Shown piece after piece: positions 33,001-36,000 of a stretch of DNA of 64,000 bases; positions within the stretch are counted from its first letter, which is position 1, and each line of letters opens with the position of its first letter. Origin of the DNA: Escherichia coli (GTDB lineage: Bacteria > Pseudomonadota > Gammaproteobacteria > Enterobacterales > Enterobacteriaceae); NCBI RefSeq assembly GCF_048403405.1, contig NZ_CP183135.1, one strand, 5' to 3'. Made by a program: the position numbers.

Positions 33001-36000
33001 AAGGGATTATCATTCAGCACATGTTGTACCTGTTCTCCCAGTCCGTTGAAGGATTTACGCATATCGGTAACGCCGGCAACGAGCCAGATACGGGTACCTG
33101 ATGGGAGTGAGATCATCTTCCCCTCCCGGTCAGTTCACGAATCAATACAGTGAGCAGCTCTGGTGAAGGATTTTCCAGCGTCATGTTACCGTGACGGAAC
33201 TCCACCTTGCAGGAGCTGGCACTGACAGTAGTCTGAGTGGATAAGGACGGAGTAAGAGCAGCCATCGGTTCTTTCGGCTCATCAGGCGTTATCTCTACAG
33301 GTAATAATTCAACGCCTGCGTCAGAAGTGGTTGTCACCGGAATACGCCGTGATATACGCCCTTCGTTTTGCCAGAGTCTGAGCCATTTGAAAATAACATT
33401 ATCATTGACGCCATTTTCTCGTGCAATCTGGGCCACACAAGCACCGGGTTGTGATGCCAGTTCAACCATACGAATTTTGAATTCATTCGAATACTTTTTA
33501 CGAGGTTCTTTTCGTCAGTCCTGTAATTCCATACTTAGATGTCCGTCTGTGTCAGATGGGCGTCTAAGGGTAATGACTCCAACTTATTGATAGTGTTTTA
33601 TGTTCAGATAATGCCCGATGACTTTGTCATGCAGCTCCACCGATTTTGAAAACGACAGCGACTTCCGTCCCAGCCGTGCCAGGTGCTGCCTCAGATTCAG
33701 GTTATGCCGCTCAATTCGCTGCGTATATCGCTTGCTGATTACGTGCAGCTTTCCCTTCAGGCGGGATTCATACAGCGGCCAGCCATCCGTCATCCATATC
33801 ACCACGTCAAAGGGTGACAGCAGGCTCATAAGACGCCCCAGCGTCGCCATAGTGCGTTCACCGAATACATGCGCAACAACCGTCTTCCGGAGACTGTCAT
33901 ACGCGTAAAACAGCCAGCGCTGGCGCGATTTAGCCCCGACATAGCCCCACTGTTCGTCCATTTCCGCGCAGACGATGACGTCACTGCCCGGCTGTATGCG
34001 CGAGGTTACCGACTGCGGCCTGAGTTTTTTAAGTGACGTAAAATCGTGTTGAGGCCAACGCCCATAATGCGGGCAGTTGCCCGGCATCCAACGCCATTCA
34101 TGGCCATATCAATGATTTTCTGGTGCGTACCGGGTTGAGAAGCGGTGTAAGTGAACTGCAGTTGCCATGTTTTACGGCAGTGAGAGCAGAGATAGCGCTG
34201 ATGTCCGGCGGTGCTTTTGTCGTTACGCACCACCCCGTCAGTAGCTGAACAGGAGGGACAGCTGATAGAAACAGAAGCCACTGGAGCACCTCAAAAACAC
34301 CATCATACACTAAATCAGTAAGTTGGCAGCATCACCTATTGCAGCGTTACTTATCCGGATTATCCTCAGAAGTGTAAATCAGCATTCTCCTTTGCTGATG
34401 CAATTGCATGCGGCAGGTATACGGACCGGTGATGCAGAGCGAATACTGTCCAGCGGTGAATGCTGGCAACGTCAGAAGACGCTGCTGACAGGAAGGGAAG
34501 TCAGTTTTATGAAAGGACTGTTCAGAATTGTGGATATGAAGCGGTGGTATCTGTGTCCGCAGGTACGGGTCGCGGATATCGTCCAGCTGAACGGGAATAT
34601 CCGGCCACGATCACGCCAGTGGTGGCAGTTATTCAGGATGGTGTCTCAGTGGCATGTTGATGTGGTTATCGTTGAGCGGCGTTCGTTCAGTATTGTTGCA
34701 GCAGTAGAGCTGGATGATGCCAGTCATTTACGACCGGAACGCAGACGCCGGGATATTCTTCTGGAAGAGGTTCTGAGGCAGGCTGGTATTCCGTTGCTCA
34801 GAAGCCACGATGCCAGAAAACTGCTGCAGATGACCGGAGAATGGCTGAATACAACAGGGGCTGATCAGCAGTCCCCGGAACATCGTAGCTGACGCCTTCG
34901 CGTTGCTCAGTTGTCCAACCCCGGAAACGGGAAAAAGCAAGTTTTCCCCGCTCCCGGCGTTTCCATAACTGAAAACCATACTATTTCACAGTTTAAATCA
35001 CATTAAAGGGCTGCGTTTGGGAAACGTACAATATTGTACGGTTGCGTTATCGCGCTCGGGTGTACTCCCGTGCTATACGGCGTTTTCAGAGGATTTGACC
35101 TCAATCGGATAACCTAAATGCAATACTGCAATGGCGATAACTTAAAAGGGATAGACGTTGACGCAAAATCAATCTGTTATGCATATCTATTGGTTAAATA
35201 ATGCGCTTAACGTTCAAAATTTTTCGATCTCCAGACTGCCCCCGTTCAGCTCGCATAGGAATTATGGGAGAGGATTTTGGCTGAACCGGACAGATATAAA
35301 CCCGTTACTTTTTATACCTTACAGATATGGTTCTTTTGACGTAATTCTTACCAATTTCATAGTCCGGGTTCCATGTCGCCAGATTATGGACACCGATTGC
35401 GGCAGCACTCACAGCTCCCAGAAGTGCTGTTGGTGACCATAGGGAGCCTGCCACCGCAGTGCTTCTGTATTCGGTGTATACGCGGCAGGTTAATTTCTTC
35501 TGCTGATGTTCAATCACATACTCCACTATTTTGACGGTTTCACTGATGTCGTTAACATTCGTGATATCAAAACTTTTGCGGTAAAAAATCAGGTCGTGTA
35601 GTTTCTGTTTGGTCAAAAATTCTGCGTTGAACGACTCAATCTGTACCGTTTCTGACATCCGTTGTTCCTCTCTTTCTTGGAGTCTGTGAATTTCCCTAGG
35701 CACGCGCCTTACGGTCAAACGTTGCACTTTTTCAGGGGCAGTGTATGTCAGAAAAGAATATATTGACTTGTATAAACGATCAATAATAAGAAATTGATCG
35801 TCTTAACTGTAAGCGTAAACCGACTGCCGTATGTGGGGGCGGTTTGGAGATCGGACATTTTTGTACTATAAGGGCTTCCCCGAACAGTCAACGTCGGTAT
35901 TTATGGTTTGTGTCTGCACTACAGTTAAAAATAAAGGGGAGAGACTGCGGTACTATAAACGGCCATAATGAATCGCTATCGATTCGGACCCTGATGAAAG

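Follow-up and report, generated by a model that had tools for sequence, protein, structure and literature searches.

The open reading frame at positions 34323–34892 (+ strand) of the 64,000-nucleotide stretch of Escherichia coli DNA analysed here (contig NZ_CP183135.1; hereafter the window) is very probably a 5'-truncated, non-functional remnant of yihA, a gene of the IncF plasmid backbone whose product carries a DUF2726 domain; that it is neither expressed nor functional is what we infer from its sequence and context. The frame, as called by an ORF finder, comprises 189 codons with a TTG start, and only its first 14 nucleotides (34323–34336), i.e. the codons M-A-A-S plus two bases of P, originate from an adjacent IS1 element. 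From 34337 onward the sequence corresponds to nucleotides 36–591 of yihA, and this coding remnant (34337–34892, + strand) is 98.7% identical to the intact gene of the uninterrupted plasmid pU13A_B, with 7 differences in 556 nucleotides. An initial annotation had suggested either an IS1-driven fusion or a pseudogene; our data support this proposal in general and favour the truncated remnant in particular.

A yihA remnant with its 5' end inside IS1

The IS1 copy is complete (768 bp, 33569–34336, − strand) and its IRL end directly abuts the yihA remnant. It has the features expected of IS1, i.e. the length of 768 bp, 23-nucleotide terminal inverted repeats and the InsA and DDE_Tnp_IS1 domains: the repeats, which are imperfect (78% complementary), lie at 33569–33591 (GGTAATGACTCCAACTTATTGAT) and 34314–34336, and the element encodes insA (34006–34281, − strand; PF03811/PF12759, InsA) and insB (33584–34087, − strand; PF03400, the IS1 DDE domain). 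The annotation of plasmid p109, which is identical here, places this copy in the IS1A family. The ORF begins inside an IS1 terminal repeat, as already noticed in the initial annotation: TTG 34323 is situated 10 nucleotides inside the IRL-side repeat, and the same repeat also holds ATC 34314, the start of a 192-aa gene model generated by PGAP. Just 5' of the repeat, the 189-aa frame is shut by an in-frame TAA (34311–34313).

In a tblastn search with intact YihA the low-complexity filter masked the first 23 residues, and the breakpoint was therefore set by DNA alignment with the corresponding locus of pU13A_B (L003). In the window it reads ...GCATCACC/TATTGCAGCG and the native sequence is AGGAGCAGATAAACA-ATG AAG CTG ATT ATT TTT ATT CTC ATT GTT CTG AT/T ATT GCA GCG (the slash marks the breakpoint). 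The breakpoint is therefore located 35 nucleotides into the yihA coding sequence, which in uninterrupted pU13A_B is preceded by AGGAG-N7-ATG. What yihA has lost is 35 nucleotides of coding sequence (12 codons), the AGGAG Shine–Dalgarno sequence and everything upstream. The earlier conjecture that the native N-terminus had been replaced by IS1 thus holds, both in this DNA alignment and against full-length homologues.

A database search yielded 370 homologues. Intact ones are 194–207 aa long, come from Escherichia, Salmonella, Enterobacter and Citrobacter, and all begin with a hydrophobic helix that lies upstream of the breakpoint. Those of E. coli, for which P0002 represents a cluster of 4,725 sequences, have 196 aa and N-terminal helices such as MKLIIFILIVLIIAALLIR... 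and MKLIIFILIVLIIAALLIRIILRS, those of Salmonella have 202 or 207 aa, and those of Enterobacter and Citrobacter about 202 aa. In the protein alignment the MAASP of the window ORF stands where homologues have MKLIIFILIVLI. Judged by sequence, the IS1 replacement takes away half of the putative N-terminal membrane helix of YihA. The best Kyte–Doolittle mean over 19 residues is 3.45 for the native protein but only 1.52 for the hybrid, which is below the usual membrane-helix level. The window ORF has neither this helix nor a native start with a Shine–Dalgarno sequence, two features of the full-length YihA subfamily.

Compared with intact yihA, a gene with an R100-style ORF name that is exemplified by WP_000766808.1 (196 aa, pU13A_B) or by the first gene of pUTI89, the remnant shares the 3' flank, the domain and the conserved residues, and it also lies upstream of repA2/copB, albeit with a 2.4-kb element inserted in between. 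It differs by five IS1-derived codons, by a glycine at native position 64 and by the lack of a Shine–Dalgarno sequence, and of hha and the thermonuclease gene upstream. The native 3' flank (34893–35007, + strand) follows the uninterrupted backbone collinearly as far as 35007 and is thus found in the uninterrupted plasmid as well; a second copy of it was not found within the window. A hairpin had been proposed to follow the ORF directly, and indeed a stem-loop can form at about 34907–34972 within this native flank, but its folding energy is ordinary (z = −1.85; 11 of 200 shuffled sequences fold as well) and a terminator scan found no terminator-like site and no T-run after the yihA stop codon. 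Because of this unremarkable energy and the missing terminator, the hairpin was dropped as a feature in its own right.

An IS1-bounded segment in place of 747 bp of backbone

In the intact IncF backbone, the gene order is traX, an alpha/beta hydrolase gene, finO, an ANR-family gene, a thermonuclease gene, hha, the DUF2726 gene yihA, repA2/copB, tap and repA1. yihA is thus the last gene of a finO–ANR–thermonuclease–hha–yihA block situated just upstream of the RepFII replicon (copB/repA2–tap–repA1). Collinearity of the window with this backbone extends to 20200 (position 3219 of L003, codon 14 of the thermonuclease gene) and resumes at 34337 (position 3967 of L003). Missing are positions 3220–3966 of L003, i.e. 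747 bp that contain the thermonuclease gene from codon 15 onward, the complete hha gene, and the ribosome-binding site and codons 1–12 of yihA. The region downstream of yihA is conserved, though a 2.4-kb element is inserted before repA2, whereas the upstream side has been replaced by a segment of 14.1 kb (20200–34336) that has an IS1 copy at either end, both oriented alike, and contains an ISCro1-like element, hok, a second repA2/tap remnant, an arcA–arcC–argF–yfcC–argR cluster and an IS66-family remnant. The partner IS1 at the left boundary (20200–23683, − strand) is split into two parts (20200–20304 and 23006–23683) by the ISCro1-like IS66-family element, which is accompanied by an 8-bp duplication (CGTCCCAG), and cuts the backbone thermonuclease gene (ATG at 20159) after 14 codons.

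A 9-bp target-site duplication is absent from the outer flanks of the segment (left, TCTTTTCAT; right, TATTGCAGC), and also around the IS1 copy on the yihA side, where the flanks GCGTCTAAG and TATTGCAGC differ. Together with the 747 missing base pairs, this points to an adjacent deletion mediated by IS1, or else to a recombination of IS1 copies with each other, as the origin of the structure, and speaks against a single simple insertion. IS1 deletions of this kind have been described to leave the element without direct repeats (PMC9330008), and as in such adjacent deletions, an IS1 end abuts a truncated gene here with no flanking direct repeat. Whichever the route, the 14.1-kb segment has taken the place of the 747 bp of backbone. 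By chance, the yihA frame remains open for 14 nucleotides within the terminal repeat of IS1, which fortuitously contains a TTG, and the 189-aa ORF is the result. This IS1–yihA scar is an ordinary rearrangement that is already catalogued in databases, with no sign of a new mechanism.

DUF2726 domain and predicted fold

The domain search that had been proposed along with the initial annotation returned DUF2726 (PF10881; E = 4.7e-21, 75.3 bits against a cut-off of 24.7, profile positions 2–110 of 126). By the Pfam match, its invariant columns and a fold match, this Vsr/DUF559-like PD-(D/E)XK domain extends over residues 52–163 of the ORF (34476–34811, + strand). The nuclease-like motif pointed out earlier, IVAAVELDDASH, is present at residues 123–135, i.e. 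within this significant match. The related restriction endonuclease family MTES_1575 gave a sub-threshold echo in the Pfam search of the 189-aa ORF. Residues D113, E129-x-D131 and H135 (window numbering) are invariant across 15 as well as across 30 homologues and are all kept in the window ORF; by analogy to the motif spacing in DUF559 they likely represent the active-site set.

An AlphaFold model of a 196-aa homologue, computed with a 30-sequence alignment (mean pLDDT 85.3), features a long N-terminal helix (residues 2–25), two short helices and an alpha/beta core. This core has the alpha-beta-beta-beta-alpha-beta topology of a restriction-endonuclease-like fold of the Vsr-like PD-(D/E)XK type. 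The model is in agreement with published work that places DUF2726 in the PD-(D/E)XK superfamily beside VSR/DUF559, with its function listed as unknown (PMC3424549), and that describes DUF2726 as a DNase domain with a REase fold, joined to modules of the defence type (PMC3710099). Intact YihA is thus predicted to be a Vsr/DUF559-like PD-(D/E)XK domain with a single-pass membrane anchor, and positive charges following the N-terminal helix suggest that this domain is cytoplasmic and tethered to the inner membrane. The plasmid protein differs from the Vsr/DUF559/I-Bth0305I branch in having this N-terminal membrane helix and a helical linker, both of which these enzymes lack, and its sequence identity to them is only 17–20%.

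A sequence-profile search of the PDB produced no sequence-level match to a solved structure, with hits to RFXAP and NDUFA13 being rejected as chance-level (E ≥ 0.04), and a weak Pfam match to RFXA_RFXANK_bdg (E = 0.021) was likewise discarded. NCBIfam has no family for the 189-aa ORF, and neither the intact nor the truncated protein matched any of the PADLOC-DB anti-phage defence models at E ≤ 0.1. The GTP-binding domain of the GTPase YihA/EngB was not found in the ORF: DUF2726 is the only Pfam assignment, with no GTPase family among the matches, and NCBIfam gives none.

The Gly57 allele

In the remnant the entire DUF2726 domain, with its D...ExD...H residues intact, is free of frameshifts and stops. 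Codon 57 is GGA (34491–34493, + strand) and thus encodes glycine at a position (E64 in the native protein) that is occupied by Glu or Asp in each of the 14 other homologues of the alignment. The exact 61-mer around this codon occurs in 244 plasmids, and a version differing by one base in 2,010 plasmids. The count for the Gly57 allele is close to that of the junction between IS1 and yihA (290 plasmids, see below), and two randomly sampled carriers of the allele both have the same IS66–IS1–yihA arrangement. On these sequence counts, the Gly57 allele is linked to the IS1 junction, which fits with a change that would have arisen in the truncated lineage under relaxed constraint. The comparison of the remnant with one intact allele, showing 4 non-synonymous and 3 synonymous differences, is uninformative and demonstrates no decay; of the variants, at least S44 and C47 are shared with alleles whose N-terminus is intact (P0008).

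Expression signals and competing explanations

Consensus scans found no promoter-like site on the + strand between 33014 and 35200. The only + strand match in the scanned region (32700–35200) is located at 32984–33013, inside the IS66 remnant and 550 bp upstream of IS1. IS1 ends can supply the −35 hexamer of fusion promoters (PMC9330008), and by manual reading the hexamer TTGGCA (34323–34328) in the IS1 end matches the −35 consensus at five of six positions. While this resembles IS1 fusion promoters, it is unlike them in that no acceptable −10 sequence follows: the candidates at a distance of 16–19 nucleotides (GTTACT, TTACTT and TACTTA) match at no more than three of six positions, and a fusion promoter built on this hexamer was therefore rejected. 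With respect to translation, the 20 nucleotides 5' of TTG 34323 contain no correctly spaced Shine–Dalgarno sequence, with a TAAG directly abutting the start codon being all that is present.

The remnant lacks half of the predicted anchor helix as well as its translation signals and the transcription unit upstream, and it has a glycine at a conserved acidic position. Its product is most likely not made at all, or present in traces as a mislocalised protein, and the remnant would then be a pseudogene in all but annotation.

An unlikely alternative is a functional IS1–yihA fusion gene. Its transcripts would arise by read-through out of IS1 or at a weak fusion promoter, their translation would begin at TTG 34323 or ATC 34314, and the product would be a soluble, anchor-less Vsr-like nuclease domain, kept for its use to the plasmid. 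The open frame and the intact domain would be in line with such a gene, as would the persistence of the arrangement (290 plasmids; 322 complete E. coli genomes) and the documented formation of fusion promoters by IS1 ends (PMC9330008); moreover, read-through may come from upstream or from inside IS1. Yet no promoter-like site faces the ORF, a promoter using TTGGCA 34323 as its −35 element would start transcription downstream of both TTG and ATC, and there is no usable Shine–Dalgarno sequence 5' of the TTG. Also, hitch-hiking on a plasmid lineage that is itself successful accounts for the prevalence of the arrangement, and Gly57, at a site that is otherwise conserved as acidic, speaks for relaxed constraint.

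We give a distinctly smaller chance to a 127-aa product that would start at the internal in-frame ATG at 34509–34511 (+ strand; Met63). This codon is used as a start by some gene callers, with this model being on record for 622 contigs, and a purine-rich, Shine–Dalgarno-like sequence (GGAAGGGAAG) is present 8–16 nucleotides upstream. A product of this length, however, would lack the invariant residues T56, E59 and F62 and begin inside the first core helix (64–76 in native numbering), such that a folded and active domain is unlikely; no promoter-like site is found here either, and a gene-caller model does not count as evidence that a product is expressed.

It would be similarly far-fetched, in our estimate, that the truncation released a Vsr-like nuclease from its membrane tether and so made it soluble, with low-level expression by read-through, a start at TTG/ATC or Met63 and the lineage-specific E64G exchange, and that this has aided the success of the widespread F-type plasmid lineage in which it is found. 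If so, the soluble altered protein might act, for instance, on incoming DNA or in plasmid maintenance.

Finally, that the ORF is a native full-length gene with its true start at an internal Met 3' of IS1, with the overlap being coincidental, has next to no probability and is refuted by the alignments with homologues and with uninterrupted plasmid DNA: apart from the presence of in-frame ATGs at codons 26 and 63 (Met26 and Met63) nothing speaks for it; homologues from four genera, none of which supports the internal start that would have contradicted the initial annotation, extend further upstream with a conserved hydrophobic helix and P/L/AG motifs between the breakpoint and these two residues, and the uninterrupted plasmid has a strong Shine–Dalgarno sequence and an ATG 35 nucleotides upstream of the breakpoint.

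Prevalence and annotation

Taken as 100 bp of IS1 joined to 100 bp of yihA, the right junction occurs in 290 out of 72,556 plasmids of PLSDB and in 322 out of 5,426 complete genomes of E. coli; the left junction, between the thermonuclease gene and IS1, occurs in 257 plasmids. The similar counts for left and right junctions are consistent with one ancestral event followed by spread. Positions 14337–41352 of the window are collinear with, and 99.8% identical to, E. coli plasmid p109 (NZ_CP023372.1; multireplicon IncFIA/FIB/FII). Across the IS1–yihA junction and the whole gene the identity to p109 is 100%, and the gene model alone differs (WP_032152936.1, 192 aa). In addition, databases contain yihA cluster members of 102–182 aa as well as chimeras with InsA or other domains; located beside the FII replicon, yihA is often damaged by the activity of IS elements.

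Three different gene models are on record for the truncated gene, i.e. 192 aa from ATC 34314 (PGAP, at least 999 contigs), 127 aa from ATG 34509 and 189 aa from TTG 34323 (48 contigs), with one source labelling the 189-aa model 'YihA protein putative exported protein'. RefSeq/PGAP annotates the locus as a normal CDS and not as a pseudogene, and no record is flagged as truncated. In the literature no description of this particular yihA truncation was found. Separately, at least two papers ascribe the function of the unrelated GTPase YihA/EngB to plasmid yihA, a confusion of names.

The remnant is a rearrangement scar, common among E. coli F plasmids of a family that has been sampled well, and it carries little biological weight. 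The practical value of these findings lies in annotation, i.e. in the inconsistent start codons, the missing pseudogene flag and the mix-up of yihA with YihA/EngB. The more interesting object of study is the intact, putatively membrane-anchored Vsr-like protein whose gene is conserved beside the IncFII replicon.

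Annotation and naming of the yihA locus

Public annotations assign three different starts to one and the same locus (34314-34892 in the window; 3978-4556 in the identical database locus L001), i.e. ATC at 34314, exactly where the IS1 inverted repeat begins, in the 192-aa PGAP model, TTG at 34323 in a 189-aa model and ATG at 34509 in a 127-aa model, and none of them flags the yihA remnant as truncated. Furthermore, plasmid yihA, a DUF2726 gene, has been presented as the GTP-binding, cell-division protein YihA/EngB (PMC4794485, PMC4155114). The plasmid DUF2726 protein contains no GTPase domain, and the two have nothing but the name in common.

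Among the database proteins retrieved with the DUF2726 ORF, P0027, P0003, P0061, P0065 and P0066 carry the DUF2726 part joined to InsA, to SNase (PF00565), to a methyltransferase or to further domains. They appear to be either chimeras that arose independently through insertion sequences or rearrangement, or gene-caller read-throughs, all at the same locus. Such apparent chimeras at a single locus thus suggest that yihA is a rearrangement hotspot.

Mobile elements and duplications around yihA

Between the 3' flank of yihA and repA2/copB lies an inserted element of 2,420 bp (35008-37427), which is missing in the uninterrupted IncF backbone. Its ends are terminal inverted repeats of approximately 52 bp (GGGCTGCGTTTGGGAAACGTACAATATTGTACGGTTGCGTTATCGCGCTCGG), and it is flanked by a 5-bp direct repeat, TTAAA, at 35003-35007 and 37428-37432, features that are Tn3-family-like. 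Inside, on the minus strand, are an IS110-family transposase gene (36130-37191) and a 140-aa ORF (35305-35727) for which there was no Pfam match. The whole may represent a small Tn3-derived element targeted by an insertion sequence of the IS110/IS1111 type.

On the other side of yihA, an IS66-family remnant (32766-33568) adjoins the IRR end of IS1. It encodes, again on the minus strand, TnpB (32766-33116) and an orfA-like HTH protein (33113-33469), with no trace in the vicinity of a gene for the large IS66 transposase, and bears the same annotation in p109, an E. coli plasmid with the same IS1-yihA junction. At the left end of the IS1-bounded segment, the second IS1 copy cuts off the thermonuclease gene of the backbone (ATG at 20159) behind codon 14. 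An ISCro1-like element of the IS66 family, with a duplication of 8 bp (CGTCCCAG), in turn splits this IS1 into two pieces, 20200-20304 and 23006-23683.

The repA2/copB-tap-repA region occurs twice in the window (24451-25596 and 37428-38564), with segments 84-99% identical; a second FII-type replicon, apparently a partial one, thus resides inside the IS1-bounded segment, beside the backbone RepFII. Further repeats in the resistance region comprise a third, inverted IS1 fragment (41441-41918) that ends at 41918, a perfect inverted pair of 1,316 bp (45903-47218 and 61223-62538) and an 820-bp direct pair (42508-43327 and 54807-55626), both copies of which match the IS26 region of p109.
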